DNA of 64,000 nt from an uncultured Candidatus Saccharibacteria bacterium. GTDB lineage: Bacteria > Patescibacteriota > Minisyncoccia > UBA6257 > JACOXY01. The notes beneath the pieces are model-generated. The model saw only the letters and a list, made by a program, of their open reading frames with translations, was not told where the DNA came from and did no database searches. The stretch is taken from assembly GCA_964357615.1 (NCBI GenBank), contig CAYHMC010000005.1, positions 24,064 through 88,063 of the forward strand, read 5' to 3'. The position numbers and the translations under genes were made by a program. This document shows positions 3,189 to 56,883 of the stretch, piece by piece; position 1 is the stretch's first letter, and each line of letters begins with the position of its first letter.

Positions 3189-4541
3189 ATGAGTTATCTC
3201 GATAAATGCGTTGTCAAAACCGATATTATGTTAAGGAAATTGAGACCATCTAGAAACCTTATTATCTTTGTTTACAATCAGAATACTTACATCCCTGTTT
3301 CAAGGGAAGACATGAATACTATTATGAAATCACCCTTCATTAGAAGCAATGAAACCACAAATAAGAACGAAAATTTCTACAAAATTCCAAACGAAATTCA
3401 TGTTGACTCGTCGCTTGAAGAATGTTATCAAGACAGAAATAATACAATGAAGTTAGAACTCAAAGGCAAGTTTAAATACGATGGAAACTCATTCACTTTC
3501 TTTGGTGTTACTCCAATGAAAAGAAAGGAAATAAACGAGTTGAAAGAGAAAGATTTCTTTATCAATCATTTAGCAGACGAAGTAGAAAATGAAGAATCTG
3601 ATGACGATGAAAAGCAGTGGAATAAAATTTCGAAAAAGACAAGAAAAACGGGAGCATTTGTTGATTATTTCAATTTCAATGTAAAACGTATTCAGGTTTA
3701 TGATAATCATGTTTTGAAAGAAGAAAAATGGTTCGAAAATGATGTTTTACACAGGAATGATGACGAAGACGATCTTCCAGCTTATATTGAGTATTATGAT
3801 AATGGTAAAATTAGCGTTGAAAAATGGTATAAGAAAGGAAAACTTCACAGAATGAATAAACCGGCTTGGTTAGAATGGTATGAAAGTGGTGAAAAGAAAG
3901 CGGAAGGATGGTATCAAGAAGGTGTTCATCATACATTGGGTGATAATTGTGATGATCTTCCATGCGCAACTTACTATTATAAAAATGGAAATAAACAAAA
4001 AGATTTTTGGTTTCAAAATGGAAAATTGAATCGAGAAAATGATCTTCCTTCTTGTATTATATACTTTGAAAATGGAAAAAAGAAACAAGAAACATGGTAT
4101 CAGAATGATAAATTACATAGAGATCATGCTCTTCCAGCTGTAATTACTTGCCATGAAAATGGAAATAAGAAAGAAGAAAAATGGTTTAATAATGGTAGAT
4201 TACATAATGACAAAAAACCGGCTTGGATTACATACTTTGAAAATGGAAACAAGGAAGCAGAAGAATGGTGTCAAAATGATAAAATACATAATCATGAAAA
4301 CCCAGCTATTATTATATATTTTGCAAACGGAAATAAGAAAGAAGAAGCATGGTATCAAAATGGAATATTGGAAAGTCCGACGCATGTCACAGAAAATAAG
4401 CTGGTTTTTGAACCAGCTTATTTTCTGTATTTTGAAAATGGAAAAATTCATCTTGAGAAATACTTTGAAAATAATTGTGAAGTGAAAACTATTCATTATA
4501 ATAAACCAAATTGTGGATGTAGTATTCAATATATAAAATAA
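3189..4541 (+). CDS. MORN-repeat protein (450 aa)
   Basis: More than 10 tandem ~23-aa repeats of the form W(Y/F)xNGK(L/I)HRxxDLPAxIxYYENGNKKxE. N-terminal 95 aa is paralogous to the N-terminus of the gene at 39818..41119 (MSY..KC.V.TD...IPNEI..DSSLE.C...NNTMKLELKG). Confidence 0.8.
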   Translation: MSYLDKCVVKTDIMLRKLRPSRNLIIFVYNQNTYIPVSREDMNTIMKSPFIRSNETTNKNENFYKIPNEIHVDSSLEECYQDRNNTMKLELKGKFKYDGNSFTFFGVTPMKRKEINELKEKDFFINHLADEVENEESDDDEKQWNKISKKTRKTGAFVDYFNFNVKRIQVYDNHVLKEEKWFENDVLHRNDDEDDLPAYIEYYDNGKISVEKWYKKGKLHRMNKPAWLEWYESGEKKAEGWYQEGVHHTLGDNCDDLPCATYYYKNGNKQKDFWFQNGKLNRENDLPSCIIYFENGKKKQETWYQNDKLHRDHALPAVITCHENGNKKEEKWFNNGRLHNDKKPAWITYFENGNKEAEEWCQNDKIHNHENPAIIIYFANGNKKEEAWYQNGILESPTHVTENKLVFEPAYFLYFENGKIHLEKYFENNCEVKTIHYNKPNCGCSIQYIK

Positions 4542-13383: not shown

Positions 13384-13998
13384 TTAATCGAAAGTAAGAA
13401 TCGCTGATTCTACTTTCGTTTTACAAAGTGGACAATCGTTATTACAAGCGATCTGCTGTGTTTGTTTTAGACAAGAGTTACAATAACAGACATGACCACA
13501 TGGAATAAGAACAATAACTTTTTTATTGTCGCAACAAAAAATACATTGTTCATCCTGTTTGTCTGTTTTGGTATCTTTGAAATTTTTAGTTTCATTAAGC
13601 ACTTTAATTGGCTTCTTTTTTTGTCTCTCTTTATTCTCTTTATTTTCACTGTTGATCATCATCATATATTCCTTGAAGCTGTTTTTGATGTATTCATTTT
13701 CCATCTGTTGCAACATCTCGTTTTTATCTTGTTTGTTTTCTGTTTCAGGATCAGGTTGAAAACCATATTGTTGACATAGATCTTGTGTAACCCAATCGTA
13801 AGGAACAAAAGTTTTTTTGGAAATTCTTCCAATCACTCTTTTATCCAGCTTAGACTTAAAAACAAGTTTGGAGCGAAAATCATAATACATTTTCAATGAT
13901 CGATTAAAAGAAACTTTTGAAAGGTCATTGAAAGCAGGAACAATCAAAATTTGATTGTTTACTTCGTTTACTTCATTTAACTTGTTTTCAACTTGCAT
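13384..13998 (-). CDS. RING-finger (C3HC4, IAP-type) protein, putative E3 ubiquitin ligase
   Basis: C-terminus CIFCCDNKKVIVLIPCGHVCYCNSCLKQTQQIACNNDCPLCKTKV matches the RING-HC spacing with the CGH signature. Class-1 motif upstream at 14007..14042. Confidence 0.7.
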   Translation of the reverse strand: MQVENKLNEVNEVNNQILIVPAFNDLSKVSFNRSLKMYYDFRSKLVFKSKLDKRVIGRISKKTFVPYDWVTQDLCQQYGFQPDPETENKQDKNEMLQQMENEYIKNSFKEYMMMINSENKENKERQKKKPIKVLNETKNFKDTKTDKQDEQCIFCCDNKKVIVLIPCGHVCYCNSCLKQTQQIACNNDCPLCKTKVESAILTFD

Positions 13999-14834: not shown

Positions 14835-14862
14835 GAATGAAGATATGATAATATCTTCATTC
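14835..14862. terminator. Perfect hairpin GAATGAAGATAT-gata-ATATCTTCATTC (12-bp stem) just after the 3' end of gene 14880..15236
   Basis: Inverted repeat read directly from the sequence, located about 18 nt beyond the minus-strand gene's stop. Position is consistent with a 3'-end/termination hairpin. Confidence 0.5.
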
Positions 14863-14879
14863 TAAATTCAATCACTTTT

Positions 14880-15236
14880 TTAATTTCTCGTTTTCAAAGA
14901 AAAAGTGTTGTTCCAAAATAACATTTTATTATTCTTATCTAGTTTTCCAAGCGCGATTGAGATTGCAGTTCTTGAATCATAACAATTAAATGCGTTGTAA
15001 ATTTGATCGATTGTCAACCATCTATGAAGCAGTAATCCAGAAATTCTTTGACACAGATCTTCCATATAAACTCTTTCATTTGGAAATGAATCACCAGTGT
15101 GTTCATTTTCCGCATCAAAATCAACAACATGAATTCTATCGAAATGCTGACCGACATCGTTTTCATGATTGATTTCAACGTCGTATTCGTATTCATTAAC
15201 TTCTTCGGTTTTAGTAGCTTTAATAACTTTACTCAT
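14880..15236 (-). CDS. Hypothetical protein (118 aa)
   Basis: ORF with class-1 motif upstream (15251..15290) and a hairpin downstream. Confidence 0.4.
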   Translation of the reverse strand: MSKVIKATKTEEVNEYEYDVEINHENDVGQHFDRIHVVDFDAENEHTGDSFPNERVYMEDLCQRISGLLLHRWLTIDQIYNAFNCYDSRTAISIALGKLDKNNKMLFWNNTFSLKTRN

Positions 15237-15308: not shown

Positions 15309-15989
15309 TTATTTTCGAATATATTTCAATGCAGATGGATTCTTTTTAGCAACTTCTAATATTTTTTCAGTTTGATTTTCAACATATTTCAGAATATATC
15401 CATTTTCTTTTATTGCTTCTAAACAGATTTCTTCGGTTTGATTTTTAACAAATTGTAATGCATAACTATTACATTTTACAGCTTCGAAACAGATTTCTTC
15501 GGTTTGATTTTTAACAAACTTTAATGCCAATCCGCACGTTCTAACAGCTTCTAAACAGATTTTTTCCGTTTGTTTTTTAACATTAACTAACGAATAACCA
15601 TCTCGTTTTACTGCTTCTAAACAGATTTTTTCAGTTTGATTCTTGACAAATAATAAAGAACATCTATTCTTCTTTACAGCTTCAAGACAGAAGTTTTCAT
15701 TTTCCCACTCATTCCAATCCTTCAAATCGATAATTTTTTCGATGAAGATGGAATCCGCTTTACTTTTATTTTTATTTTGGAAATGACAAACTTTTGCTGT
15801 TTCGGGAATAGAAACAAAAGCCAGTTTTGTACCAAAACTTAACCATTCAGGAACATCTTCTTTCCTACAGAAATGAAGACCATTCTCACATTCTTCATCG
15901 TTGAAGACAGAAGTATCGATATTCAACCCTAATTTGTATTGAAACCTATGATGATTCATTTTATCATTCAAAACCTTATAATATTGCAT
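15309..15989 (-). CDS. DUF4116-like 22-aa tandem-repeat protein with conserved MQYYKVLN N-terminal domain (226 aa)
   Basis: N-terminal ~110 aa MQYYKVLNDKMNHHRFQYKLGLNIDTS...GLHFCRKEDV...KLAFVSIPETAKVCHF, then about 5 repeats of VKNQTEKICLEAVK.NGY.L.YV. The repeat resembles Pfam DUF4116, from memory. Class-1 motif upstream (15990..16026) overlaps the stop of the next gene. Confidence 0.65.
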   Translation of the reverse strand: MQYYKVLNDKMNHHRFQYKLGLNIDTSVFNDEECENGLHFCRKEDVPEWLSFGTKLAFVSIPETAKVCHFQNKNKSKADSIFIEKIIDLKDWNEWENENFCLEAVKKNRCSLLFVKNQTEKICLEAVKRDGYSLVNVKKQTEKICLEAVRTCGLALKFVKNQTEEICFEAVKCNSYALQFVKNQTEEICLEAIKENGYILKYVENQTEKILEVAKKNPSALKYIRK

Positions 15990-16025
15990 TTAAAAATTTT
16001 TTCAAAAAATTTTTAAATTCATTTT

Positions 16026-16847
16026 TCAGAAACTGATGTCGATATATTTTGATGCTAATGGGTTTTGTTTAACCGCTTCTAACAATATCTTTTCAGTTTT
16101 TTTTTTAACATATCGTAATGCATATCCATTTCGTTTTACAGCTTCTAAACAGATTTCTTCAGTTTGATTTTTGACGTATTCTAGAGCACTTTCATTCTGT
16201 TTTACTGCTTCAAAACAGATTTCTTTTGTTTGTTTTTTGACGTATTGTAATGCCGAACCATTCTGTTTTACAGCTTTTAAACAGATTTCTTCCGTTTGAT
16301 TTTTGACGTATTGTAATGATTCACCATGTCGTTTTACTGCTTCTAAACAGATTTCTTCAGTTTGATTTTTTACGTATTTTAAAGCATAACCAGACCGCTT
16401 TACTGCTTCTAAACAGATTTTTTCAGTTTGATTTTTAACAAAATACAAAGAATAAGCGTTCAGTTTTACAGCTTCTAAACAGATTTCTTCAGTTTGATTT
16501 TTGACGTATTGTAATGAATTACCATGTCGTTTAACAGCTTCAAGACAGAAGTTTTCATTTTCCCACTCATTCCAATCCTTCAAATCGATAATTTTTTCGA
16601 TGAAGATGGAATCCGCTTTACTTTTATTTTTATTTTGGAAATGACAAACTTTTGCTGTTTCGGGAATAGAAACAAAAGCCAGTTTTGTACCAAAACTTAA
16701 CCATGATAGAACATCTTCTTTTCTACAGAAATGAAGGCCGTTTTCACACGTTTCATCATTGAAAGCCGACGTATCGATATTCAACCCTAATTTGTATTGA
16801 AACCTATGGTGATTCATCTCCTCATTCAAAACCTTGTAGTATTGCAT
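16026..16847 (-). CDS. DUF4116-like repeat protein, paralog (273 aa)
   Basis: Same N-terminal domain; about 8 repeats of VKNQTEEICLEAVK(R/Q)(N/H)G.AL(Q/K)YV. Confidence 0.65.
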   Translation of the reverse strand: MQYYKVLNEEMNHHRFQYKLGLNIDTSAFNDETCENGLHFCRKEDVLSWLSFGTKLAFVSIPETAKVCHFQNKNKSKADSIFIEKIIDLKDWNEWENENFCLEAVKRHGNSLQYVKNQTEEICLEAVKLNAYSLYFVKNQTEKICLEAVKRSGYALKYVKNQTEEICLEAVKRHGESLQYVKNQTEEICLKAVKQNGSALQYVKKQTKEICFEAVKQNESALEYVKNQTEEICLEAVKRNGYALRYVKKKTEKILLEAVKQNPLASKYIDISF

Positions 16848-16882
16848 TTAAAAATTTTCAAATAAAATTTTTAAATTCATTT

Positions 16883-17824
16883 TTAGTTTCGAATATATCT
16901 AGAAGCATCTTTGTCCTCTTTTAAAGCTTCAAAACAGATTTCTTCGGTTTGATTTTTAACAAATTGCAACGCTAAACCGTTCTGTTTTACTGCCTCTAAA
17001 CAGATTTCTTCAGTTTGATTTTTAACATATTCTAATGCATAACCACGTTGTTTTACTGCTTCAAGACATATCTCATTTGTTTGATTTCCAATATACATCA
17101 ATGCTGAACCCTCCTTTTTAATAGCTTCTAAACAGATTTCTTCAGTTTGATTTTTAACATATGCTAATGCGTAACCATCCCGTTTTACAGCTTCAAAACA
17201 TATTTCTTCAGTTTGATTTTTAACAAACTTTAATGCCAATCCGCACGTTCTAACAGCTTCTAAACAGATTTTTTCAGTTTGGTTTTTGACATAATCTAAT
17301 GCAAAACCAAGATTCTTCACAGCTTCTAAACAGATTTTTTCAGTTTGGTTTTTGACAAATTTTAGGGAATAACCATCGTGTTTTACAGCTTCAAGACATA
17401 TTTCTTCGGTTTGGTTTTGAACATCTTGAAGAGCATATCCACGTTGTTTTACAGCCTCTAAACATATTTTTTCAGTCTGATTTTTAACATATACTAAAGA
17501 GTATTCATTCTTCTTTACAGCTTCTAAACAGAAGTTTTCATTTTCCCACTCACACCAATCCTTCAAATCGATAATTTTTTCGATGAAGATGGAATCAGCT
17601 TTGCTTTCATTAATTTCGTGACAAACTTTCGCTGTTTCGGGAATAGTAATAAAAGCCAGTTTGTTTCCATATTCTAACCATAAAGGAACATTTTCTTTTT
17701 TATAGAAAATGATACCAAAATAATAGTCTTTAATATCAGAAATTGAAGTTTTAACATTCAACCCTAATTTGTATCGAGATTCTGAATCTCTCATTTTATC
17801 ATTCAAAACCTTGTAGTATTGCAT
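16883..17824 (-). CDS. DUF4116-like repeat protein, paralog (313 aa)
   Basis: More divergent N-terminal domain (MQYYKVLNDKMRDSESRYKLGLNV); about 10 repeats. Confidence 0.65.
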   Translation of the reverse strand: MQYYKVLNDKMRDSESRYKLGLNVKTSISDIKDYYFGIIFYKKENVPLWLEYGNKLAFITIPETAKVCHEINESKADSIFIEKIIDLKDWCEWENENFCLEAVKKNEYSLVYVKNQTEKICLEAVKQRGYALQDVQNQTEEICLEAVKHDGYSLKFVKNQTEKICLEAVKNLGFALDYVKNQTEKICLEAVRTCGLALKFVKNQTEEICFEAVKRDGYALAYVKNQTEEICLEAIKKEGSALMYIGNQTNEICLEAVKQRGYALEYVKNQTEEICLEAVKQNGLALQFVKNQTEEICFEALKEDKDASRYIRN

Positions 17825-17859
17825 TTAAAAATTTTTAAAAAAATTTTTAAATTCATTTT

Positions 17860-20800
17860 TTATTTAATATTCAACTTCAAAAGAAGTGTGTTTAATTCTG
17901 TAAAAAGGAGTTTACTTGCATAAGGTATCGTTACCCATTTAATATCATTTTCTTTGCAACTTTGACAACTAGTCTCATTGGCAACCATAATTTCACATTT
18001 TTTACAAACTGGAATTTTAAAAGGATCAGAAACTTTAAATAATCTTTCATTAATAACAGAAGCGACACCATGGGCAACTAATGCATCTCTTTCCATTTCA
18101 CCAAGTTTTAGACCACCGTCTCTACTTCTGCCTTCGAGTGGTTGTCTTGTTAAATTAGTGAGACTTCCTCTTGCACGTGCATGCATTTTATCAGAAACCA
18201 TGTGTTTCAATCTCTGGTAATAAGTTGGTCCCATGAAGATTTTCGATTGAAATCTTTCTCCTGTGATACCACAATACATAGTTGTCCATCCGTATGGATC
18301 TATATACGATCCAGTCTTTGAATTGAATCCATTCTTTTTCAATCTTTCAACCAACTTATCAGCTACATTAACACTCGATTCTGTGAATGGTGTTGCATCT
18401 GCAAATGAACCTGTTTCTAAACATTCTTTTCCAAGAACACATTCAATAAGTTGATTGATTGTCATACGTCCTGGAATACAACATGGATTAATAATGATAT
18501 CTGGAACCATTCCATCTGCTGTTCTAGGCATATCGATCTCTGGAATAATAGCACCAACCGTAGCTTTCTGAGAAGATCTCGCTGCGAACTTATCTCCTAA
18601 AGTTGGTTGTCTCCATTCTCTAATTACAATTTTAATTACTTTGTAACCATTCGGATTGATTGAAACATGAACCCTATCAATGGTTCCTTCTTGATCTTGA
18701 TGAATGATGATACTTTCGTCTGTCTTTGTGTATTCACTATTTTTATTTCCAGAACAGATCACTTTTCCAATGATGACATCACCTTTTTTAACAAAGGTGC
18801 ATTCACCGTAGTATTCACCTTTTTCATTTCTGAATTTTCTAGGTCTAACAATTCCGTTTTCATCGAGCAGTGCATAGTTTGCATTTTTTCTTTTAAAAAA
18901 CTTTGTATCTGTATCTTTAATTCCAACTGTTGAAGCAGGTGGTAAACAAATTTCTTCGTAACTATAAGTATCTCTCTTTTTCTCACAGTATTCAATGGTG
19001 TAATAAGAAGTAATAGCGAATAACCCACGTTCAACAGAGGCTTTATTTAGCATACAAGAATCTTCTTGATTGTAACCCGAAAGCGCAGCGATCGCAACTA
19101 TCGCATTTAGACCAGAAGGCATTTCGTGTAGTTTTAGATACTTTGCGAGTTTGGTCGAGACAAGAGGTTTTTGTGGATAATGAAGAACATATAGATTTGT
19201 ATCTGTTCTAATGTTGTATGATTGAAGAGGAATTCCTAAAGCTTGCTTACCCATACTCGATTGGTAGCAGTTTCGTGGAGATTGGCTATGATCTGGAAAC
19301 GGAATACAACCAGCCATAATTCCAAGCATAACAAATGGATGAATCTCACAGTAATCATTCTGTTGAATCGCAAGATCTTTTTGAGTCATAGCAAGAACTT
19401 TGAATTCGATTTCAGATGGATCTAGAAATTCAACAAGTGAATTTTTAACAAGATCATTCCAATCATACTTTTCTTTGCGTTCAATAATCATTTTATTATT
19501 TTCAAGTCGCAATAAAGGTCTAATTAATCTTCCTTCATCACAGAAAATTCTTATTTCTTTGTCAACAGGATCGTAACTTATAGAAACTTCATAATTGATT
19601 ACCTGTGCACGTCTGAGTTTTAAAAATTTTGAAATTAATTTAACATGATCGTTTGTAAATCCAACAATACAACCATTCAAAAGAACGGGAATGAATACAA
19701 AATCGTATTTACAATCGTTTTCAACATCGAAGTTGTCGATTTGAATAATTTCTGGTAACTTATCAAGCACATTTCTAACTACAATTTTTTGTGTCTTTTT
19801 AGTGATATTTGCAGTCATTGATAGATTGAGAACTGTTCCAACTTTTTGACCTTCTGGAGTTTCACATGGACAAATGAAACCGTAACTAGACCCATGAATC
19901 TGTCTGATAGCAACGTTTTTTCCTTCTTTCTTACCAACAGGAATAATGATTCTTCTAAGATGTGAAAGAGACGATGCATATGTCATTCTATCAAGAACCT
20001 GTGAAACCCCCATTTTAACATACGAACCATTTTTCTGAACATTCCATGTTCCAGTGGCCATGCATTGATGAAGACCTTTTGTGATGATATTATTATTTTT
20101 GATGATGAGTGAAAGTATATCTGGTTTTTGTTTAAGTGTTGTAATACGGGATGAAATGGTGTTAATAAATTTTTTAAAAAGATTACAAAAAATTTCCGAA
20201 AAAAGCATTCCAGTGCTTTCAATTCTTTTGTTAATATAATTATCTTTACTATCTTCAGCTCTGTCTTTCTTCAAGGTTCTAAAAAGTTTATTGATCATCA
20301 TTCCAAAAAATAAAGATTGTTCCTTAATTGTGCCTGAAATTCCGAAATGAGGAAGAGATTCATTTTGAATTACTTGCCATGCATACTTGGTTTTTTCGTT
20401 ACTTGGAATTTCGTGAATGGCGTGATTAGCAATAAATTTCAAAGCTTCTTCTTGAGTTTCACAAATCAACGAATCTCTATAAATATAAAGAATTAGTTTT
20501 TCATACTTCGGATCTGGCTTGATTCTAATCAAATTACGAATATCTTTTTCTGATGGAAAACCAAACGCTTTAAAAAGAATTCCGGCTAAGATAGGTTTTC
20601 CGATATGAGGAAGAATAAATGAAATAGTTCTTTCATCGGTCTCAATAATTGCTTTAATCGAAACCGAATGATTGGTTTCATTTGACATTGAACGAACTTC
20701 AGCCGAATATTTGATCTTCTTTTCACCTTTTTGTTTGAAGACACAAATTTGATTATAAATTCCTCTCATCTGAGATACAACAGCTCTTTCTTTTCCTTTA

Positions 20801-21273
20801 ATAATAAAGTAACCACCAGAATCGTTTCTACATTCACCTTTTTCTATTCTTTGTTCTGGTGACAAAGAATAGAGATTGCAAATACACGATCGAAGCATAA
20901 TTGGCAATCTACCAATCATGATTTTATTGTGTTCTTTAACGGTTTCATTTTTATTTTCCGAATTTGAATTAGTTTCAATAATATTACAAAAGATAGGGCA
21001 ATCATAAGTCAGAATTCTTCTTCTTGCATCAAAGGGAAATAAAGGATGCAGTTCCCTGTTTGTCTCACAGATAAAAGATTGACCCAAACAAACGTTTTCA
21101 AATTTAATCGAATATCCTTGTGATGAAATCACAGAATTCTGTTCAATGATCTCTTGAAGACCGTATGTTACAAAATCATTAAAGGATGATATTTGACAAT
21201 CAACCAAAGAAACTGCACGAAAATACGAATCGAGTATATTCCAAATATATTTTTCTTCAAGATGAGTTTCCAT
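17860..21273 (-). CDS. RPB2: DNA-directed RNA polymerase second-largest subunit (RPB2)
   Basis: Conserved Rpb2 blocks: GDKFAARSSQKATVG, GMVPDIIINPCCIPGRMTINQLIE, GITGERFQSKIFMGPTYYQRLKHMVSDKMHARARG, PLEGRSRDGGLKLGEMERDALVAHG. Track ORF start 21309 is an artefact of the ATG inside the upstream motif; the likely start is ATG ~21273 (METHLEEK). About 1137 aa, no intein. Confidence 0.9.
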   Translation of the reverse strand: METHLEEKYIWNILDSYFRAVSLVDCQISSFNDFVTYGLQEIIEQNSVISSQGYSIKFENVCLGQSFICETNRELHPLFPFDARRRILTYDCPIFCNIIETNSNSENKNETVKEHNKIMIGRLPIMLRSCICNLYSLSPEQRIEKGECRNDSGGYFIIKGKERAVVSQMRGIYNQICVFKQKGEKKIKYSAEVRSMSNETNHSVSIKAIIETDERTISFILPHIGKPILAGILFKAFGFPSEKDIRNLIRIKPDPKYEKLILYIYRDSLICETQEEALKFIANHAIHEIPSNEKTKYAWQVIQNESLPHFGISGTIKEQSLFFGMMINKLFRTLKKDRAEDSKDNYINKRIESTGMLFSEIFCNLFKKFINTISSRITTLKQKPDILSLIIKNNNIITKGLHQCMATGTWNVQKNGSYVKMGVSQVLDRMTYASSLSHLRRIIIPVGKKEGKNVAIRQIHGSSYGFICPCETPEGQKVGTVLNLSMTANITKKTQKIVVRNVLDKLPEIIQIDNFDVENDCKYDFVFIPVLLNGCIVGFTNDHVKLISKFLKLRRAQVINYEVSISYDPVDKEIRIFCDEGRLIRPLLRLENNKMIIERKEKYDWNDLVKNSLVEFLDPSEIEFKVLAMTQKDLAIQQNDYCEIHPFVMLGIMAGCIPFPDHSQSPRNCYQSSMGKQALGIPLQSYNIRTDTNLYVLHYPQKPLVSTKLAKYLKLHEMPSGLNAIVAIAALSGYNQEDSCMLNKASVERGLFAITSYYTIEYCEKKRDTYSYEEICLPPASTVGIKDTDTKFFKRKNANYALLDENGIVRPRKFRNEKGEYYGECTFVKKGDVIIGKVICSGNKNSEYTKTDESIIIHQDQEGTIDRVHVSINPNGYKVIKIVIREWRQPTLGDKFAARSSQKATVGAIIPEIDMPRTADGMVPDIIINPCCIPGRMTINQLIECVLGKECLETGSFADATPFTESSVNVADKLVERLKKNGFNSKTGSYIDPYGWTTMYCGITGERFQSKIFMGPTYYQRLKHMVSDKMHARARGSLTNLTRQPLEGRSRDGGLKLGEMERDALVAHGVASVINERLFKVSDPFKIPVCKKCEIMVANETSCQSCKENDIKWVTIPYASKLLFTELNTLLLKLNIK

Positions 21274-21276
21274 TTT

Positions 21277-21322
21277 TAATTTTTTTTTCGAAAAAAAAAT
21301 TAAAATCATTTTTAAAAATTTT
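21277..21322 (-). promoter_or_regulatory. Class-1 upstream motif for RPB2
   Basis: In gene orientation reads TTTTTAAAAATGATTTTAATTTTTTTTTCGAAAAAAAAATTAAAA then ATG. Confidence 0.5.
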
Positions 21323-21330
21323 TATTGAGT

Positions 21331-22272
21331 TTACTTTTTAACATATTTCAAAGCATCTCTGTCCTGTTTTACAGCTTCTAAACAGATTCCTTCTGTTTGG
21401 TTTTTAACATAGCATAAAACACACCCATTCTTTTTTACAGCTTCTAAACACATCTCTTCAGTTTGGTTTTTAACATACTCTAAAGCCATTCCATCCTGTT
21501 TTACAGCTTCTAAACACACTTTTTCAGTTTGGTTTTTAACAAAATACAAAGCATGTCCATCCTGTTTTACAGCTTCTAAACACACTTTTTCAGTTTGGTT
21601 TTCGACATACTGTAAAGCCCATCCATAATTTCTAACAGCTTCTAAACAGATTTCTTCAGTTTGGTTTTTAACAGAAAACAAAGCATTTCCATCCTGTTTT
21701 ACAGCTTCTAAACATATTTTTTCAGTTTGGTTTTTAACAAAAGACAAAGCATTTACATCCTGTTTTACAGCTTCTAAACAAATTCCTTCAGTTTGATTTT
21801 TAACAAACAGTAAAGCATATCCATCCTGTTTTACAGCTTCTAAACAGATTTCTTCAGTTTGGTTTTTAACATACTGTAAAGCATATCCATTCTTTTTTAC
21901 AGCTTCTAAACAGATTTTTTCAGTTTGGTTTTTAACATACTTCAAAACCAATCCATCCCGTTTTACAGCTTCCAAACAGAATTCTTTATTTTCCCATTCA
22001 TTCCAATCTTGCAAATCGACAACTTTTTCAATAAAGATAGAACTAGCTTTGCTTTTATTTTCAAAATAACAAACTTTTGCCGTTTCAGGAATAGTAATAA
22101 AAGCTAATTTAGAACCGTAACTCAGCCATGATCCAATGTCTTCTTTTTTACAGAAATGAAGACCTTTTTCGCATTCTTTATCGTTGAATTCAGATGTATC
22201 AATATTCAACCCTAGTTGATATTGAAAACCATTGTGTTTCATTTCATTGTTTAAAACTTTGTAGTATTGCAT
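21331..22272 (-). CDS. DUF4116-like repeat protein, paralog (~314 aa)
   Basis: MQYYKVLNNEMKHNGFQYQLGLNIDTS N-terminal domain plus about 10 repeats. Track ORF (to 22353) is extended through the promoter ATG; the real start is ATG ~22272. Confidence 0.65.
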   Translation of the reverse strand: MQYYKVLNNEMKHNGFQYQLGLNIDTSEFNDKECEKGLHFCKKEDIGSWLSYGSKLAFITIPETAKVCYFENKSKASSIFIEKVVDLQDWNEWENKEFCLEAVKRDGLVLKYVKNQTEKICLEAVKKNGYALQYVKNQTEEICLEAVKQDGYALLFVKNQTEGICLEAVKQDVNALSFVKNQTEKICLEAVKQDGNALFSVKNQTEEICLEAVRNYGWALQYVENQTEKVCLEAVKQDGHALYFVKNQTEKVCLEAVKQDGMALEYVKNQTEEMCLEAVKKNGCVLCYVKNQTEGICLEAVKQDRDALKYVKK

Positions 22273-22325
22273 TTTAATTTTTTTTTGAAAAAAATTAAAA
22301 ATCATTTTTTTATTTTTAAAAATAA

Positions 22326-39284: not shown

Positions 39285-39764
39285 TTATTTGAAAAAAAGA
39301 CAACAAATAGACAAGTTAAGGCAGAGATCAGAAGTATTTTTTAAAGATTCGTTTTGCGGTGATTCAATCCCTTTTGTATGATAACCATGAATATACCATG
39401 CTTCAGCTTTCACTTTACCATTTTTAAAATATTCGATTAAAGCCGGTTTATTTGACGATTCGTTATGCTCTCTATGCCTTACATCATCAATGAACCATTC
39501 TTCTCGTTTCACTTGTCTTTTATTATTTTCGTATTCATAATATTCGACTATAGCTGGACCATTTTCTCTACTCACTTTTCCGTTTCTAAACCAAATAACT
39601 TTTTTTAGATTTTGAATCTGAGTATTATTTTTGTTATCGAAAAAATGAATTTCAGCTGGAAGATCGTTTTCTCGATGAAGTCTGTGATTTGTTTCAGAAA
39701 CCATCCATCGTATTGTCTTGATTCTTGATTTATCATAATCAAAAAATTCTTTCTCACAATACAT
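39285..39764 (-). CDS. MORN-repeat protein (short, ~159 aa)
   Basis: WF.NGK.HR..D.PA.I.Y repeats. The track start (39821) is a TTG codon; the likely real start is ATG ~39764 (MYCEKEFF), preceded by the motif variant AAAATTGATTTCAAAAAAAAATTTTTTGAAAAA. Confidence 0.7.
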   Translation of the reverse strand: MYCEKEFFDYDKSRIKTIRWMVSETNHRLHRENDLPAEIHFFDNKNNTQIQNLKKVIWFRNGKVSRENGPAIVEYYEYENNKRQVKREEWFIDDVRHREHNESSNKPALIEYFKNGKVKAEAWYIHGYHTKGIESPQNESLKNTSDLCLNLSICCLFFK

Positions 39765-39817: not shown

Positions 39818-41119
39818 TCAATTATGACTAAGAATATCTTGATTTTGGTACCATCCACGATGTACAATTCCATTTTCATAATATTTTATCCAAGGTGCTA
39901 ATCCGTTTTCACGATAAAATTTATGAAATCTGCACCATCTTTCAATAAGAATTTTTCCATTTTCATAATATTGAATAATCCCAGGTAGATCACTTTCACG
40001 ATGGAATTCTCCATTTTTACACCATCTTTGATCTTTCATATTTCCATTTTCATAATAAGAAATTACAGCTGGTAAATCATAATTTCTATTAGTTTTGCCG
40101 TTCTGAAACCACATTTCCATTTTCTTATTTCCATTTTCATAATAAATAATATCGGCTTGAAGATCATCATCTCTATGTAATTTATCATTTTGAAACCATT
40201 TCTCTTCCTTTTTATTTCCGTTTTGAAAATAGGAAATCAAGCACGGATATCTATTATCATAATTTTTCACTTCATCAATCATATTAAATCGATTTTTTTT
40301 ATTGTTTTGCCACCATTCTTCTTGTTTTACAACACCGTTTTCATAATATTCGATATAAGCTGGAAGATTTTTAATCTCACTAGTCTTGTTGACCTTGTTT
40401 ACGTTACGATGTTGTTTACCATTGTTATACCACGCATCACTCTTTTTATTTCCATTTTCATAACAAGTAATTACAGCTGGAAGATCATGATCTCTATGTA
40501 ATTTATCATTTTGAAACCATTTTTCATCTATCAAAATACAATTTTTATATTCTTTCATACATTTGGTATTGTTTTCAAAAAATTTCTCTTCGATATAATC
40601 TCTAAATATTTTTTCCTCGGCTGTTGAACTTACAGGATTTTGCATTTTAATTTCTTCATTTGAAAGCATTTTAATGTCTTGTTTCTCAACACTACTTTTT
40701 TCGTCTTCAGAATCACTTGAAATTTCATATTCATAATCGAAAACAGATTTCTCGTCAGAATTAATATCTTTTCTTTTAAGCGGTGTTACAGTGTAATAAC
40801 AAAATGTTCTTTCGCTAGGTTTTGAAACAACTTTAAACCTACCTTTGAGTTCCAATTTCATTGTATTATTTTTATTTTTGAAACAATTTTCAAGGGAAGA
40901 ATCAATATAAATTTCATTTGGAATTCTATAGAATGATTGATTAATGTTTGTGCTTTCTTCAGTATGAGTTTGTTTCAATTCCATAATTTTTTTGAAATCT
41001 TTTCTTGAAACCGGAATGTAAACATCATCTGATAAAACAAAAATAATCAAATCAGAACAAGGTTTCAATTCCGAAAGATAAAAATCCGTCATGACAGCGC
41101 ATTTGACCATATAACTCAT
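39818..41119 (-). CDS. MORN-repeat protein (433 aa); N-terminus paralogous to 3189..4541
   Basis: About 9 MORN-like repeats (WFQNDKLHRDHDLPAVITCYENGNKK...); conserved N-terminal 95-aa domain. Class-1 motif upstream (41122..41160). Confidence 0.8.
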   Translation of the reverse strand: MSYMVKCAVMTDFYLSELKPCSDLIIFVLSDDVYIPVSRKDFKKIMELKQTHTEESTNINQSFYRIPNEIYIDSSLENCFKNKNNTMKLELKGRFKVVSKPSERTFCYYTVTPLKRKDINSDEKSVFDYEYEISSDSEDEKSSVEKQDIKMLSNEEIKMQNPVSSTAEEKIFRDYIEEKFFENNTKCMKEYKNCILIDEKWFQNDKLHRDHDLPAVITCYENGNKKSDAWYNNGKQHRNVNKVNKTSEIKNLPAYIEYYENGVVKQEEWWQNNKKNRFNMIDEVKNYDNRYPCLISYFQNGNKKEEKWFQNDKLHRDDDLQADIIYYENGNKKMEMWFQNGKTNRNYDLPAVISYYENGNMKDQRWCKNGEFHRESDLPGIIQYYENGKILIERWCRFHKFYRENGLAPWIKYYENGIVHRGWYQNQDILSHN

Positions 41120-45875: not shown

Positions 45876-46620
45876 ATGCAATACTACAAGATTTTAAACG
45901 ATGAAATGAAACATCATGAGTTTCAATACAAATTAGGGTTGAACATCGATACGTCTGATTTCGATGATAAAGAATGTGGAAAGGGTCTTCATTTTTGTAA
46001 GAAAGAAGATGTTGGATTGTGGCTGAGTTACGGTTCTAAATTAGCTTTTATTACTATTCCTGAAACAGCAAAAGTTTGTCATTTTAAGAATAAAAGTAAA
46101 GCAAATTCTATCTTTATCGAAAAAGTTATTAATTTGAAAGATTGGAATGAATGGGAAAATGAAAATTTCTGTTTAGAAGCTGTGAAACAAAATGGAAAAG
46201 CTTTATATTACGTCGAAAACCAAACTGAAGAAATCTGTTTAGAAGCTGTAAAACAGAATGGAAATGCTTTACAGTTTGTTAAAAATCAAACTGAAGAGAT
46301 GTGTTTGAAAGCTGTAAAACAGTATGGAAACGCTTTAGAGTATGTCAAAAACCAAACTGAAGAAATCTGTTTGAAAGCTGTAAAACAGAATGGAAATGCT
46401 TTACAGTTTGTTAAAAATCAAACTGAAGAAATCTGTTTAGAAGCTGTAAAACAGAATGGAAATGCTTTTTACAGTTTGTCAAAATTCAAACCGAAGAAAT
46501 ATGTTTAGAAGCTGTAAAACAGAATGGATGTGCTTTACAGTTTGTTAAAAATCAAACTGAAGAAATGTGTTTAGAAGCTGTAAAAAGGAATGGATACGCA
46601 TCAAAGTTTGTTAAAAACTA
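45876..46620 (+). pseudogene. DUF4116-like repeat gene with an apparent +2 frameshift (~46467); probable pseudogene or homopolymer sequencing error
   Basis: MQYYKILNDEMKHHEFQYKLGLNIDTS N-terminal domain and repeats are in frame to 46508 (stop after ...KPKKYV). Repeat-coding sequence continues in another frame to TAA ~46620. Indel at gcTTTTTa versus consensus gcTTTa. Confidence 0.55.
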
Positions 46621-46681: not shown

Positions 46682-46713
46682 ATTTACGATACCAGAATTC
46701 TGGTATCGTAAAT
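46682..46713. terminator. Perfect 32-nt palindrome ATTTACGATACCAGAATTCTGGTATCGTAAAT (16-bp stem, EcoRI site at centre)
   Basis: Located ~60 nt downstream of the stop of the 45876 gene and immediately before the promoter motif of the next gene. Identical copy at 47761..47792. Confidence 0.55.
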
Positions 46714-46757: not shown

Positions 46758-47699
46758 ATGCAATACTACAAGGTTTTAAACGATGAAATGAAATACAATG
46801 AGTTTCAATACAAATTAGGGTTGAATATTGATACTTCTGAATTCAACGATAAAGAAATGTGGAAATGCCCTTCATTTCTGTAAAAAAGAGGATGTTCCAA
46901 TATGGCTGAGTTACGGTTCTAAATTAGCTTTTATTACTATTCCTGAAACAGCGAAAGTTTGTCATTTTGGAAATAAAAGTAAAGCAAATTCTATCTTCAT
47001 TGAAAAAGTTATCGATTTAAAAGATTGGACTGAGTGGGAAAATAAAGAGTTTTGTTTAGAAGCTGTAAAGCAGGATGGATTGGCTTTAGAGTTTGTTAAA
47101 AGCCAAACTGAAGAAATGTGTTTAGAAGCCGTAAAACAGAATGGAAACGCTTTGTATTTTGTTAAAAATCAAACTGAAGAAATCTGTTTAGAAGCCGTAA
47201 AGCGGGATGGATGTGCTTTGTATTATGTTAAAAACAAAACTGAAGAAATATGTTTAGAAGCTGTAAAAAAGAATGTGTGTGCTTTGTATTTTGTCAAAAA
47301 CCAAACTGAAGAGATGTGTTTGGAAGCTGTAAAACAGTATGGAATAGCATTAGAGTTTGTCGAAAACCAAACTGAAGAGATGTGTTTGAAAGCTGTAAAA
47401 CTGGATGGATTGGCATTAGAGTTTGTTAAAAGCCAAACTGAAGAAATCTGTTTAGAAGCTGTAAAAAATAATGGATGTGCTTTGGAATTTGTTAAAAATC
47501 AAACCGAAGAAATGTGTTTAGAAGCTGTAAAAAGGAATGGATATGCTTTACAGTATGTTAAAAATCAAACTGAAAAGATCTGTTTAGAAGCTGTAAAACA
47601 GAATGGAAATGCTTTAGAGTTTGTTTTTTAACAAACTGAAGGAATTTGTTTAGAAGCCGTAAAACAGGACAGAAATGCTTCAAAGTTTGTTAAAAACTA
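46758..47699 (+). pseudogene. DUF4116-like repeat gene, tandem copy, disrupted by a +1 frameshift (~46855) and a premature TAA (47629-47631)
   Basis: ATG 46758 encodes MQYYKVLNDEMKYNEFQYKLGLNIDTSEFNDKE, then an extra A (gataaagaAAtgtgg versus gataaagaatgtgg in the 45876 copy) shifts frame, giving TAA at 46881. Repeats resume in the track ORF 46828..47631. AAAAAT changes to TTTTAA creating a stop, and coding-like sequence continues to ~47699. Confidence 0.55.
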
Positions 47700-47760: not shown

Positions 47761-47792
47761 ATTTACGATACCAGAATTCTGGTATCGTAAAT
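47761..47792. terminator. Second copy of the perfect 32-nt palindrome ATTTACGATACCAGAATTCTGGTATCGTAAAT
   Basis: Part of a ~200-bp direct repeat (about 46560..46757 and 47640..47837) comprising the gene 3' end, hairpin and following promoter motif. Confidence 0.55.
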
Positions 47793-52193: not shown

Positions 52194-54533
52194 ATGAACA
52201 ACTGTAATGAAAGAGATGTGCTAATATCGCTCGGTAATTCTTCACACTGCTTTAACCCTGAAGAAGTTAAGGAGTGGTTCAAAGTATCTTACGCGGATCA
52301 AAAAGAATTTGTTATTTTTACTCAAAACAGAAAGATTGTCTTTGAAAAATGGAAGAAAGATATTCCACATTTTCTTATTCCTCAACTAAATGGTATGGTT
52401 GATTTTAGTTTCAAAGACGCAATTAAGCATGAAAATAAAAAGTTTGAATTTAAAGCTTCAAAAGATAACCGTGTTTACTATTTATCGGAAAGTGAACACT
52501 CTTTACCTTATCGTTTTTTTTCCTTTACTATTATTCAAGGTGATGAAATAAAAGAGGTAATTCCCTCTAATCCTATTCTTGCAAAATGTGTTGATAAACA
52601 AGATTTTTTAAAAAACGATCTCGTCTTCAATAAAGATATTATTATTTTTTTCGTTACAAGTGTAAATCGAAAAGCTTTAGATGCTATTGAAAAGTTATTT
52701 AACGATGAATTCAAAAATACAGACCGTGCAATCCCTATACAAAAATTAAATTTAAATGTTAAGTTTATAAATGGTGTCACTCAGATCGTTAAAAAATATT
52801 TTAAAGATTACCCTGAAAGGGTATCAACTATAATTAAAAACATAAAATTTTTTATGGAAGATAAATCAACCCAACAAAGCGGAGTAACTTTTGGAAAATT
52901 TTTAGATATGAAACATATCGTTTCATTGTCTTCAAATGGGCTTCAAACAGTAAATACAGAATCGTATATGTGTGCAACAAAATCGAATATTAAAGAGCTG
53001 ATGAAAAGTAATTATTCATACGCCGTGAGAAAAGGGTCATTTAGATTGAATAGATACAAAAACTTACGACAAAACCCAGAAATACAAAACATGATTCTAC
53101 ATCCAGAACAGCAGGATCCTAACAATCCATTATTCGCAGAATATCAAGCTTTGGAAAATCAATACCAAGTCTTACTTAATAATCTTGACAACGCTGATCA
53201 TTGTCTTTATAAAGTTATTTATCACTACTGGATAGATGGGTTTGCAAAACTTATTGACGATTTCAATGTAATCAACCTGATCGAAATGCCATTACCAACT
53301 TTATTGATAAACAAGCACGATGTGTCTGTTATAACAACATATTATAAAGCTTTACCAAGTTCATTCATGGTCATCAGTGACACATACGAAGAAAGTAATG
53401 AAAACGGAATACAAGTTTTCTTAGAGACGAAAGAAAGGGAGCAGAAAGAAGAAGAAAAATTTGTTATGGTTGAAGATGAAAAAGAACGGAAGGAAAACGA
53501 AAGAACTTTTATATTGATAAATCCATTAACATATGCTCGAGCTAATATGAGTGATATTGGACCCGGAACGGTGTTTCAGATTAACGTAAAGAATTACAAT
53601 GGTGTTGAAAAGCAAGACGAGTTTATTAAAACTATTTTTGGTATAGGAATGAAAACGAAAATAAACAATACACTTATATATGAGAACGACAACAGTGTTA
53701 TACACTTCGAAAGTTTTGGTCAGGAATATAATCAAGACACATTCAACCCAGCTATATATTTGTATAAATTCAACCCTAATAATACGTTTGAATTTAATTT
53801 ATATAAAATTGCAAATTTTTATGAAGATGTTCGTGATATTGACGAAAAAGAAAATTATTACAAGTATCGTAATAAATTGGCATCTACCGATTTTATGATA
53901 GATTTTTTACAATCTGTAAGTGATGAAAGAGCAGAAAAAGATATTTTTATAAGACATTATTTGAAACAATCCACTGGTATCAAACTTAAAGATACACCAT
54001 CGAAAATTATTGTTATTGAAGATTATAAAAATAAGATCAACCTAGCAAGAGGAATTTACATATACACAACAGATGAAAAGGAAGTTAATGGTTACTTATC
54101 TAACGGGAACATAGAAGAGAAGGCGGAAACAGATGGGTATGATGATGATAAAATGATACTTTACAGAAACATGGATTTCAAGACTGATGATGGGGTTACA
54201 AGCATTCCATTTAAAATAGGAAATCATTGTTTATTGCCTGGGTTAACATTAATCATTTGTGATGATTTAATTCAAGGCAGAATTATACTTAATAAAAACA
54301 AAATTATTCCTTTATTTATTTTTTATGAAATAGAAGATGTTCAAGACGGAATTAACGATGGTGATGTTGAAAATGAAGATGCAGATGTTGATATAGAAGA
54401 GGATGAAAATGAAAGTAATGAAGGCAATGAAGGCGATGAAAGTAATGAAGGAGACGAAGGTGATGAAAGCGGAAATGAGTATGAAGGCGATGAAGGAGAC
54501 GGAAATGATGATCAGTTAATGTCAGATTTATAA
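52194..54533 (+). CDS. Paralog family A member 1 (779 aa), unknown function, poly-acidic C-terminal tail
   Basis: Conserved with the next two genes: N-terminus M..CNDKDV.IS..N.S.CF.PEEVK.WF...YADQ; ...QLNGMVDF.FKDAIKH.N.KFEFKAS; internal HYLKQSTGIKLKDTPSKIIV; C-terminal DE/GNE repeats. Start context AAAATAAAATG. Confidence 0.6.
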   Translation: MNNCNERDVLISLGNSSHCFNPEEVKEWFKVSYADQKEFVIFTQNRKIVFEKWKKDIPHFLIPQLNGMVDFSFKDAIKHENKKFEFKASKDNRVYYLSESEHSLPYRFFSFTIIQGDEIKEVIPSNPILAKCVDKQDFLKNDLVFNKDIIIFFVTSVNRKALDAIEKLFNDEFKNTDRAIPIQKLNLNVKFINGVTQIVKKYFKDYPERVSTIIKNIKFFMEDKSTQQSGVTFGKFLDMKHIVSLSSNGLQTVNTESYMCATKSNIKELMKSNYSYAVRKGSFRLNRYKNLRQNPEIQNMILHPEQQDPNNPLFAEYQALENQYQVLLNNLDNADHCLYKVIYHYWIDGFAKLIDDFNVINLIEMPLPTLLINKHDVSVITTYYKALPSSFMVISDTYEESNENGIQVFLETKEREQKEEEKFVMVEDEKERKENERTFILINPLTYARANMSDIGPGTVFQINVKNYNGVEKQDEFIKTIFGIGMKTKINNTLIYENDNSVIHFESFGQEYNQDTFNPAIYLYKFNPNNTFEFNLYKIANFYEDVRDIDEKENYYKYRNKLASTDFMIDFLQSVSDERAEKDIFIRHYLKQSTGIKLKDTPSKIIVIEDYKNKINLARGIYIYTTDEKEVNGYLSNGNIEEKAETDGYDDDKMILYRNMDFKTDDGVTSIPFKIGNHCLLPGLTLIICDDLIQGRIILNKNKIIPLFIFYEIEDVQDGINDGDVENEDADVDIEEDENESNEGNEGDESNEGDEGDESGNEYEGDEGDGNDDQLMSDL

Positions 54534-54559
54534 ATTTTTTAAAAAAATTTATAAATAAA

Positions 54560-56848
54560 ATGAGTTGCAACGACAAAGATATCTATGTTCTATACAATAA
54601 TTCTTCATACTGTTTTTCACCTGAAGAAGTGAAAATGTGGTTTGAGATACCTTATGCCAAACAAGAGAGTGGTGCTATTACTGAAAATATTAAAAAAGCT
54701 TACGAAATGTGGAAGAAAACACAACCGAGATTTCTTATTTCCCAGCTTAATGGTATGGTTGATTTTAATTTCAAAGACGCTATTAAACATGGAAATAATA
54801 AGTTTGAATTTAAAGCTTCTAACCAAGTCGAAAATTATTATTTATCTAAAGAGAAATATAACTTACCTTACCATTCCCTTTCTTTTAAAATTCTCGAAGA
54901 ACAACTTGGTCTTGAAATTAAAGAAGTTGTTCCGTCTTCTTCAATGCTTCAAAGATGCTACAGTAAAAAAGATTTATCGGGAACAACCGATATAGTATTT
55001 GACAATAACACGATTGTTTTTTATACAACGACAATCAATAAACCTGCTTGGAACGAGATTCTTGGATTTTGTGAAAATTGGTTCCAGAATCCTGGTTTAT
55101 TACTAAATATGGCTATAGAACCAGAATTTATGGGTCAACTTACAAAAATCGTTAAAAAATATTATAGCAATTATGCAAATATAGTTTGTAACATACTGAA
55201 AAATCTCAAAGTAAATATGGGCAAATACCCGAAAGATTTTACGTTTGTAAAATTTATGAGAGGAACGGATTTTAGATTTTCTTTTGTAAATGAATTACAA
55301 ACTGCTAATACGGATTCTTACAATTGTTTTTCGAAAACAGATCTTGTTAACATGATAATCAATAAATATGCGGTTAATCAAGAGTCGTTTAAATATAACA
55401 GATATATTGAACTTGAAAATAAACTACAACATCAAATCGGACTTTATCAAGCCAATCCAAACCAGGGTCATGCTTTTATTAATCATCCTTTGTTTCAAGA
55501 GTATCTCAAACTAGCTAACGAATACAGAATTTTAATTGATAAGTTGAAAGAGCATGACAAATGCTTTCACAACATTCTTTATCTTTGGATCGATGAAAGC
55601 CTAATTGAAGTTCTTAAAAATAATTTCAACACGATCAATTTAGTTGAAATGCCTTATGATGTCACGCTTTTAACAAAAGACAATTCCAATGTGAAAACTT
55701 CATTTTACAAGGCATGTCCAAGTTCACGTTATATACTTGAAAAAAATGATAACGATGTTGATAATTTAAATTTTGAAACTAATATGGTAGGTGAATATAT
55801 TTTCTTTCAAATGATGGAAGATGAAAAAGAAAGAAAACCAAACGAAAGAAAGTTTAGATTGATTAATGTTTTAACGAATAAATTTGTGGATATAAACGAT
55901 ATTGAAAACAAAACTATTTTGGAAAGTATTGTAAAAACCTTTGATTTCGGTATTGAAAAGAAAATTGAATATTATGTGCAAAGTGGAGAGATAATTGAAA
56001 CTAAAGTATTTGTCAATAACAACATGATTTGTCAGCAAGAATATGAAGATAACGAATGTGTTTTTTTTGTTTTTGGTCAAGAGTATACCATCGGGTGTTC
56101 GATTGGTATGTTTGTATACTCGTTTGACTTCAATAATATAATCAGTATGAAAAGTTTTAAGAATGGTGGAGAAGAACGTTATCGTAATATACTTGCAAAA
56201 GAAGGATTTTTTGCGGAATATGTAGACGCTGAAGAAGGCGAAGCGAGGTTGAATAAAGATATCTTTATAAAACATTATTTGACGCATTCTACTGGTATCA
56301 AACTTAAAGATACACCATCAAGAATTATAGTGTTCGATAACATGGAAAACAAAAAAAGAATTCAAAGGGGTGCGTATGTTCTTATCAGCACTTTTCTTGG
56401 AGATGATCAAGATAATTTGGAAGAATTTAAAAATCAAGATTTCGAAGATGAAATTACAAGAATTTTTTGTTCTGGGGATGAAGATATGCTTATACTCTAT
56501 AAAAATATGAATTTCAAGGGTGATGGTGGAAGCTTAGATATTCCAGTTAAAATAGGTCAACACACCATGGCAGAAGGCTTAACTTTTATAATTTGCGATG
56601 ACTTAGTTGAAGCCAAAATTCTATTTGCAACATATAAAACGCAACCAAAGTTTTTATTTTTTGAAATTGAAGAAATTCAAGACAGTATTAGGGATGAAGA
56701 TGTCGAAAATGAAGGAGAATTTATAGATGAGCACATTAATATTGGAGGCGGAGAAAATGAGAATGTAGTATTCGTTGATGACAACGAAGAACAGATTGAG
56801 GGCAACGATGAAGACGAAGAAGACGAAGACGAAGATGAAAACAATTAA
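54560..56848 (+). CDS. Paralog family A member 2 (762 aa)
   Basis: Same conserved blocks (HYLTHSTGIKLKDTPSRIIV; acidic tail DEDEEDEDEDEN). Preceded by palindrome TAAATTTTTTAAAAAAATTTA and ATAAATAAAATG. Confidence 0.6.
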   Translation: MSCNDKDIYVLYNNSSYCFSPEEVKMWFEIPYAKQESGAITENIKKAYEMWKKTQPRFLISQLNGMVDFNFKDAIKHGNNKFEFKASNQVENYYLSKEKYNLPYHSLSFKILEEQLGLEIKEVVPSSSMLQRCYSKKDLSGTTDIVFDNNTIVFYTTTINKPAWNEILGFCENWFQNPGLLLNMAIEPEFMGQLTKIVKKYYSNYANIVCNILKNLKVNMGKYPKDFTFVKFMRGTDFRFSFVNELQTANTDSYNCFSKTDLVNMIINKYAVNQESFKYNRYIELENKLQHQIGLYQANPNQGHAFINHPLFQEYLKLANEYRILIDKLKEHDKCFHNILYLWIDESLIEVLKNNFNTINLVEMPYDVTLLTKDNSNVKTSFYKACPSSRYILEKNDNDVDNLNFETNMVGEYIFFQMMEDEKERKPNERKFRLINVLTNKFVDINDIENKTILESIVKTFDFGIEKKIEYYVQSGEIIETKVFVNNNMICQQEYEDNECVFFVFGQEYTIGCSIGMFVYSFDFNNIISMKSFKNGGEERYRNILAKEGFFAEYVDAEEGEARLNKDIFIKHYLTHSTGIKLKDTPSRIIVFDNMENKKRIQRGAYVLISTFLGDDQDNLEEFKNQDFEDEITRIFCSGDEDMLILYKNMNFKGDGGSLDIPVKIGQHTMAEGLTFIICDDLVEAKILFATYKTQPKFLFFEIEEIQDSIRDEDVENEGEFIDEHINIGGGENENVVFVDDNEEQIEGNDEDEEDEDEDENN

Positions 56849-56883
56849 TTTTTCAAATTATTCTAAAAAATTTTTTAGAATAA

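Follow-up and report, generated by a model that had tools for sequence, protein, structure and literature searches.

A locally amplified family of DUF7666 and DUF4116 repeat genes flanking RPB2 in a giant virus contig

The window considered in this study is a stretch of 64,000 nucleotides (nt) from contig CAYHMC010000005.1 of assembly GCA_964357615.1 (positions 24,064 to 88,063, forward strand), which is deposited as an uncultured Candidatus Saccharibacteria bacterium. Between positions 15309 and 22272 it carries four minus-strand genes around RPB2, the products of which consist of a shared N-terminal head and a run of 22-residue repeats. To judge from its gene content (RPB2, RPB5, protein kinases, RING fingers, RNase III and Mimiviridae-associated domains of unknown function, DUFs), the window is part of a giant virus, and its G+C is 28-34%. 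The narrower label 'Mimiviridae-like' is indirect, being drawn from the promoter motif, the adjoining DUFs and the range of viruses with the same head.

The original prediction of four minus-strand genes flanking RPB2 with a common MQYYKVLN head was borne out to the nucleotide. An open reading frame (ORF) is present at each of the four positions, and all four proteins open with MQYYKVLN and a head of about 95 residues. Gene g1 (15309-15989, 226 aa) encodes the head and 6 repeat units, g2 (16026-16847, 273 aa) the head and 8 units, and g4 (21331-22272, 313 aa) the head and 10 units; these three are intact, g2 has 11 units and 339 aa in a sibling assembly, and g4 is nearer to the more distant copy g5 than to g1-g3. 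Gene g3 (16883-17824, 313 aa), likewise intact, has 10 units behind a diverged head. RPB2 itself, on the minus strand between g3 and g4 (listed ORF 17860-21309), carries the Pfam RPB2 domains 1-7.

Further copies within the window were found by tblastn. On the plus strand, g5 (45876-46620) encodes the head and 5 units, followed by a +2 frameshift which ends the 210-aa product at 46508 and leaves two more units out of frame up to 46620. Its neighbour g6 (46758-47699, plus strand) has 10 units and is disrupted by the insertion of one A near codon 33 and by a premature stop at 47629. Only the 3' part of a further minus-strand copy, g7, falls inside the window (63803-64000). A nonsense codon at 63873-63875, with a decayed unit beyond it, shortens this copy, which measures 214 aa in contig L006. 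In that contig g7 stands in tandem with g8 (272 aa, intact), which lies just beyond the window end, the pair occupying L006 8234-9869 upstream of an RNase III gene. The 64 kb thus hold seven copies (g1-g7), as previously proposed, with the eighth just outside, and the family has at least 8 members in about 70 kb: five intact, two truncated (g5 and g7) and one disrupted (g6).

The head had been taken as novel, and this view has to be given up. Pfam DUF7666 (PF24703) is matched by g1, g2 and g4 with 32.9, 36.7 and 37.3 bits against a curated cut-off of 27 bits; g3 falls below this cut-off and gave no match to DUF7666 at E<=0.01. The same domain was matched by 52 of 56 aligned heads, and the PHROG 14105 profile by the head with E 4e-7; tblastn with the head found nothing in 50,697 phage genomes. 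A profile built from the window copies and two metagenomic relatives retrieved 2,033 head relatives at E<=1e-3 (374 at E<=1e-10) among 1.84 billion cluster representatives. A word-index homolog search returned few proteins, all metagenomic, and therefore no taxonomy was drawn from them. When g2 and its 149 best head relatives were scanned for domain architecture, DUF4116 repeats were found in 94 of the 150 sequences and ankyrin repeats in 13, and 66 passed the DUF7666 cut-off. The head begins within the first 40 residues in 135 of 165 heads, the window's own proteins included.

The predicted structure of the head alone (predicted local distance difference test, pLDDT, 91.2) is compact and beta-rich, with seven strands and one helix. 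Among the predicted viral structures of BFVD, Foldseek found 76 matches at E<=1e-3 with template modelling (TM) scores of 0.75-0.83, which further removes the head from the novel category. The ankyrin proteins among the matches include Mimivirus L26, R267 and L696 and 'ankyrin repeat proteins' of Megavirus, Moumouvirus and Tupanvirus, and the DUF4116 proteins include those of Bodo saltans virus, Gaeavirus, Dasosvirus, Fadolivirus and Marseillevirus LCMAC201; the fold is also predicted to be common to DUF4116 proteins of klosneuvirus-like metagenome-assembled genomes. In these ankyrin proteins the head corresponds to the module outside the ankyrin repeats. With Mimivirus L26 the match has E 1.3e-9, TM scores of 0.75 on the query (TMq) and 0.80 on the target (TMt), and a root mean square deviation of 2.0 over 99 columns, both structures being predicted. 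Since proteins of Mimivirus, Megavirus and Tupanvirus carry this head together with ankyrin repeats, it can be regarded as the constant part and the solenoid as the swappable or tunable one. From these models the head looks like a constant module which giant viruses join to either of two kinds of solenoid. Sequence and profile matches to IQGAP1 (E 0.017) and mS42 (E 0.07) in the PDB are at chance level and were set aside.

Near-invariant residues of the head are K5, Y18, G21, N23, D25, G37, F40, G53, P62 and K77. Over 129-150 relatives, conservation reaches 95% for K5, 87% for H13, 92% for Y18, 99% for N23, 91% for D25, 82% for C34 and 94% for K77. A metal site formed by cysteine and histidine residues had been suggested for the head, and of its candidate ligands C34, H39, C41, C68 and H69 only C34 is well conserved. 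In 129 relatives H13 and C34 are the only well-conserved residues of these two types; position 39 is occupied by Tyr in 77%, Cys is retained at position 41 in 50%, C68 and H69 lack conservation, and the paralog g3 is without C34, H39 and C41. Because the ligand set is not conserved, a family-wide Cys/His metal site is not supported, and Pfam scans of g1-g4 and of the aligned heads gave no match to a zinc-finger family. The conserved polar residues may possibly form a functional site of another kind.

The likeness of the repeats to DUF4116, as originally proposed, proved genuine. Their period is exactly 22 aa (66-nt arrays at the DNA level according to Tandem Repeats Finder), and g1, g2, g3 and g4 score 77.1, 147.2, 143.4 and 220.3 bits against Pfam DUF4116 (PF13475), with E-values from 7e-22 to 1e-66 and a curated gathering cut-off of 24.9 bits. 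PF13475 is also recorded for g5 and g7. The AlphaFold2 model of full-length g2 (pLDDT 97.8, predicted TM score 0.90) places the head at residues 1-90, followed by eight helical hairpins; in each 22-residue unit a helix of 10 residues is predicted to lead through a turn into one of 6 residues, and the eight units stack as an alpha-solenoid. Contact-based prediction of the DUF4116 family has likewise given an alpha-solenoid (PMC8078820). Over 44 units, positions V1, N3, Q4, T5, E6, C9, L10, E11, A12, K14 and L20 form a near-fixed framework and positions 15, 16, 18 and 21 are hypervariable, with an entropy of 2.3-3.2 bits; positions 2, 7, 17, 19 and 22 are intermediate (1.2-1.6 bits) and most others stay below 0.8 bits. 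In the predicted structure the four hypervariable positions lie where the long helix ends, in the turn and on the short helix, a placement as expected for a recognition ridge. Additional Pfam matches to g4 (FAF, HATPase_c_5, WSC and others) are noise driven by the repeats, with no significant individual stretch, and the NCBIfam matches, all below threshold, are of the same origin.

Each of the four genes had been assigned a 'class-1 promoter', and a promoter-like motif is indeed present. The window holds 27 copies of AAAATGAWTTT where 3.75 would be expected, and none of 100 shuffles contained that many. About two fifths of the ORFs, RPB2 included, have it 35-46 nt ahead of their ATG, and in all family members it stands at -35 to -37. 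On the minus strand, the form AAAATGAATTT lies at 16015-16025 (36 nt upstream of g1 and directly after the g2 stop codon), at 16873-16883 (upstream of g2, sharing 1 nt with the stop codon of g3) and at 17849-17859 (upstream of g3, immediately behind the stop codon of RPB2), and the form AAAATGATTTT lies at 21302-21312 upstream of RPB2 and at 22298-22308 upstream of g4. The array is compact, as had been proposed, with spacers of 35-36 nt between g1, g2, g3 and RPB2. The further proposal that each stop codon is embedded in the promoter of the neighbouring gene nearly holds at these three junctions, where the two abut or overlap by one base, but fails between g4 and RPB2 and downstream of g1. The motif also bears on gene starts, as five listed ORFs begin at an ATG inside it (21309 for RPB2, 4553, 22305, 47805 and 61532), a mistaken start codon. 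Because its listed start is one of these, RPB2 probably begins at ATG 21273 (METHLEEK), 36 nt downstream, and the gene would then span 17860-21273.

In Mimivirus, the motif AAAATTGA marks early genes and is absent from morphogenesis genes (PMC5294985). The motif of the window and this early promoter are both A/T-rich, octamer-like elements that precede roughly 40-45% of genes at a fixed spacing, whereas the core in the window is AAAATGA(A/T)TTT and the canonical AAAATTGA is found only 14 times there. Early expression of the family may be suggested because of this resemblance. The gene at 39285-39764 has the canonical AAAATTGA upstream instead of the AAAATGAWTTT variant, so both forms of the motif are present in the genome.

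The minus-strand spacers at 15975-16032, 16838-16890 and 17815-17866 are almost purely AU palindromes in which the motif pairs with the stretch around the start codon of the following gene. As RNA they would fold into hairpins with stems of 13-14 bp and free energies (dG) of -7.4 to -7.8 kcal/mol (z-scores -1.5, -4.0 and -3.2). Under the 'hairpin rule' of Mimivirus, a hairpin serves as the 3'-end signal of the transcript, and by analogy the spacer hairpins might double as the 3'-end signal of the upstream gene. Downstream of g5 a perfect 16+16 palindrome is present on the plus strand at 46682-46713 (RNA hairpin -20.8 kcal/mol, z -8.3), and the same palindrome recurs at 47761-47792 downstream of g6; these palindromes (ATTTACGATACCAGAA/TTCTGGTATCGTAAAT) lie about 60 nt past each gene, inside the duplicated 3' flank. 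A comparable 12+12 hairpin at 14835-14862 (z -3.3) follows the gene at 14880-15236. All three are candidate transcript-end signals.

Selection on the head was compared among the copies. The ratio of nonsynonymous to synonymous substitution rates (dN/dS) is 0.09-0.14 among the heads of g1, g2, g4 and g5, with dS from 0.34 to 1.47, and these heads are under purifying selection. The g3 head has a dN/dS of 0.5 against g1 and g2, and in comparison with the g2 head its first 43 residues are 47% identical and its last 27 are 89% identical. Genes g5 and g6 are tandem duplicates with 84% identity and an identical 3' flank, and the frameshift of g5 is found unchanged in an independent replicate assembly. 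At the level of repeats, unit g1.3 is 98% identical to g3.5 and the adjoining units about 80%.

The window has matching contigs in the Hainich groundwater metagenomes ENA ERZ1292619, ERZ1292624 and ERZ1292625 ('Hain_H41_01um'), which are short-read assemblies with a coverage of 5-11x. The sibling contigs compared differ from the window only inside the family genes. The 81-kb sibling L001 shows only 10 differing positions in 23 kb, and these are one block of five single-nucleotide polymorphisms (SNPs) repeated at the paralogous head sites of g1 and g2 (15741-15769 and 16599-16627), which reflects either concerted evolution or the collapse of paralogs by the assembler. Over a shared 10.5 kb, an 11-kb sibling shows only 2 SNPs in g3 and a three-unit duplication in g2, which is exact, in frame and 198 nt long, lies between two 88%-identical units and gives 339 instead of 273 aa. 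The contigs of other assemblies break at g5 and g6. These patterns of turnover fit unequal crossing-over together with gene conversion. The original view of a family that gains and loses copies agrees with the tandem duplicates, the two truncated copies and one disrupted copy, the variant in repeat number and the signs of gene conversion.

Several known systems resemble the family in part. Among them are the DUF4116 proteins of giant viruses (such as those of Bodo saltans virus, A0A2H4UTM7, Gaeavirus, Dasosvirus, Fadolivirus and Marseillevirus LCMAC201), which share the head fold (Foldseek E 4e-9 to 2e-7, TM 0.69-0.81), and the combination of head and DUF4116 was the commonest one in the architecture scan. 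On the other hand, the heads are only 21-28% identical, and here the copies are packed at high density and interleaved with the core genes RPB2, RPB5 and RNase III; the one related locus in IMG/VR has a single family copy. The ankyrin proteins of the Mimiviridae (Mimivirus, Megavirus, Moumouvirus and Tupanvirus) also share the head fold (E 1e-10 to 5e-7, TM up to 0.8), and ankyrin repeats recur among the top head relatives. These proteins form large paralogous families as the present ones do, but their solenoid is made of 33-aa ankyrin repeats and not of 22-aa two-helix DUF4116 units. A 'genomic accordion' model has been discussed for ankyrin genes in Bodo saltans virus (PMC5871332); birth and death of copies are common to both cases, whereas the copies studied here lie among core genes. 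The ankyrin/PRANC (F-box-like) host-range proteins of poxviruses likewise combine a small constant domain with a variable solenoid and show tandem amplification and copy decay. There is no sequence or fold relation to them, however, and no PRANC or F-box match; the constant domain here is N-terminal, the copies are not confined to genome ends, and any similar role would be by analogy. F-box and BTB repeat proteins are analogous in design and not homologous.

These features are best, though tentatively, read as a locally amplified family of early-expressed cytoplasmic adaptors with a constant head and a variable alpha-solenoid binding surface, a reading to which we would give somewhat less than an even chance. 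The proteins would be made early in infection and act in the cytoplasm, where the solenoid would bind variable host or viral proteins and the head would connect these to one conserved partner or activity. The family would evolve as genes duplicate in tandem, convert one another or decay into pseudogenes, and through unequal crossing-over between units. The role in host range or defence evasion which was originally envisaged is a reasonable analogy only. A number of points weigh against the adaptor reading. Neither DUF7666 nor DUF4116 has an experiment or a characterised homolog behind it, and motif resemblance is the sole argument for early expression. No F-box, PRANC, BTB, SOCS or RING signature was found by Pfam in g1-g4 or in the 150 scanned sequences, and a link to the degradation machinery is therefore only an analogy. 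In the PDB, the head has no Foldseek neighbour (best E 0.26) and its best sequence-profile match has E 0.017. No solved structure is significantly similar to the solenoid either, the best being armadillo-repeat proteins (E 0.02-0.06), so that this likeness is weak. The many conserved polar residues of the head (K5, H13, Y18, N23, D25, C34 and K77) fit an enzyme as well, and the variants in repeat number and SNPs, coming from low-coverage short-read metagenomes, could be assembly artefacts.

If the head were an enzyme or a toxin-like effector, such as a hydrolase dependent on Cys and His or an activity that requires a metal, with the solenoid merely targeting substrates, both these polar residues and the strong purifying selection on the head would be accounted for, and in Mimivirus the toxin domain Ntox19 is in fact fused to ankyrin repeats (PMC3482391). 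Such a head is nevertheless unlikely, as H13 and C34 are missing in 13-18% of relatives and in g3, the proposed ligands H39, C41, C68 and H69 are not conserved, and no fold or profile match to a hydrolase, toxin or zinc-binding family was obtained. Ntox19 itself was rejected as the identity of the head, since its motifs (D, H, DxxxR, E, HxxF) are missing and the domain was not among the Pfam matches. The proteins have also to be considered as structural or scaffold parts of the virion, fibrils or viral factory, in which the solenoid would be a spacer of variable length. Alpha-solenoids can serve as scaffolds, the repeat number ranges from 6 to 11, and a high-copy family adjoining core transcription genes would suit this role; but the genes carry the early-type motif that Mimivirus morphogenesis genes lack, truncated and disrupted copies are tolerated, and the hypervariable positions are clustered as for a recognition surface and not a spacer, which makes a scaffold the most improbable of the alternatives.

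The remaining two alternatives concern the turnover of the copies. The expansion could be largely neutral, with recombination-prone repeats duplicating and decaying and most copies having little or no function, and the 3 of 8 copies that are truncated or disrupted, the dN/dS of 0.5 in the g3 head and the breaking of other assemblies at family loci would all be in line with it. Against this stand the dN/dS of about 0.1 in the heads of g1, g2, g4 and g5 despite dS up to 1.5, the intact frames of 226-313 aa with the 66-nt variant kept in frame, the promoter motif kept by each copy and an architecture conserved across distant giant viruses, and a neutral origin is considered very unlikely. Much more plausible, though still short of probable, is that the variation between assemblies (the three extra units in g2 and the parallel five-SNP block in g1 and g2) is a short-read artefact across near-identical paralogs. 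The heads of g1 and g2 are 100% identical over nt 150-300, so that variants there cannot be phased by an assembler, and the contig L002 with the extra g2 units has a coverage of about 5x; the identity over 150 nt and the low coverage together make an artefact possible for both differences, and contigs of other assemblies do end at g5 and g6. However, the extra 198 nt has the form that unequal crossing-over between similar units would leave, the g5 frameshift was reproduced exactly in the replicate assembly, and an artefact would touch the turnover evidence only and not the identity of the genes.

Other features of the window stand apart from the family. Two proteins with a C-terminal RING finger are encoded at 13384-13998 and 60084-61472, and the second also carries leucine-rich repeats, so that the virus has candidate E3 ligases of its own in which recognition would be repeat-based. 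Tandem repeats inside genes were also found at 4051-4362 (84 nt, 3.7 copies) and 40034-40198 (87 nt, 1.9 copies), within the ORFs 3189-4541 and 39818-41119 respectively, neither of which matches Pfam. On the plus strand, three consecutive ORFs of similar size (779, 762 and 744 aa) at 52194-59118 are without the promoter motif and have no match in the precomputed Pfam records of the locus; they may be another paralogous set.

The locus reveals no new kind of system. In the literature no paper on DUF7666 or DUF5758 was found and DUF4116 is mentioned only in passing; by sequence both domains are catalogued yet uncharacterised families, of which the present genes are further members, tidy but not new. 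Multigene families of repeat proteins nevertheless make up a large share of giant virus genomes, and almost none has a known function. Our study ties the DUF4116 arrays to the ankyrin family of Mimivirus through a common head, and it provides a confident structural model, a map of the hypervariable positions and a compact natural example of the birth, conversion and death of copies. Hence, the head becomes a concrete target for structural and interaction studies. A bolder and doubtful proposition is that DUF7666 is a previously unrecognised constant module, with no relative of solved fold, which unites two of the largest multigene families of giant viruses, the ankyrin proteins of the Mimiviridae and the DUF4116 proteins, and docks variable solenoids onto a single conserved host or viral machine, the arrays changing measurably within one natural groundwater population. 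If this is true, the ankyrin and DUF4116 families would together represent a programmable targeting system.

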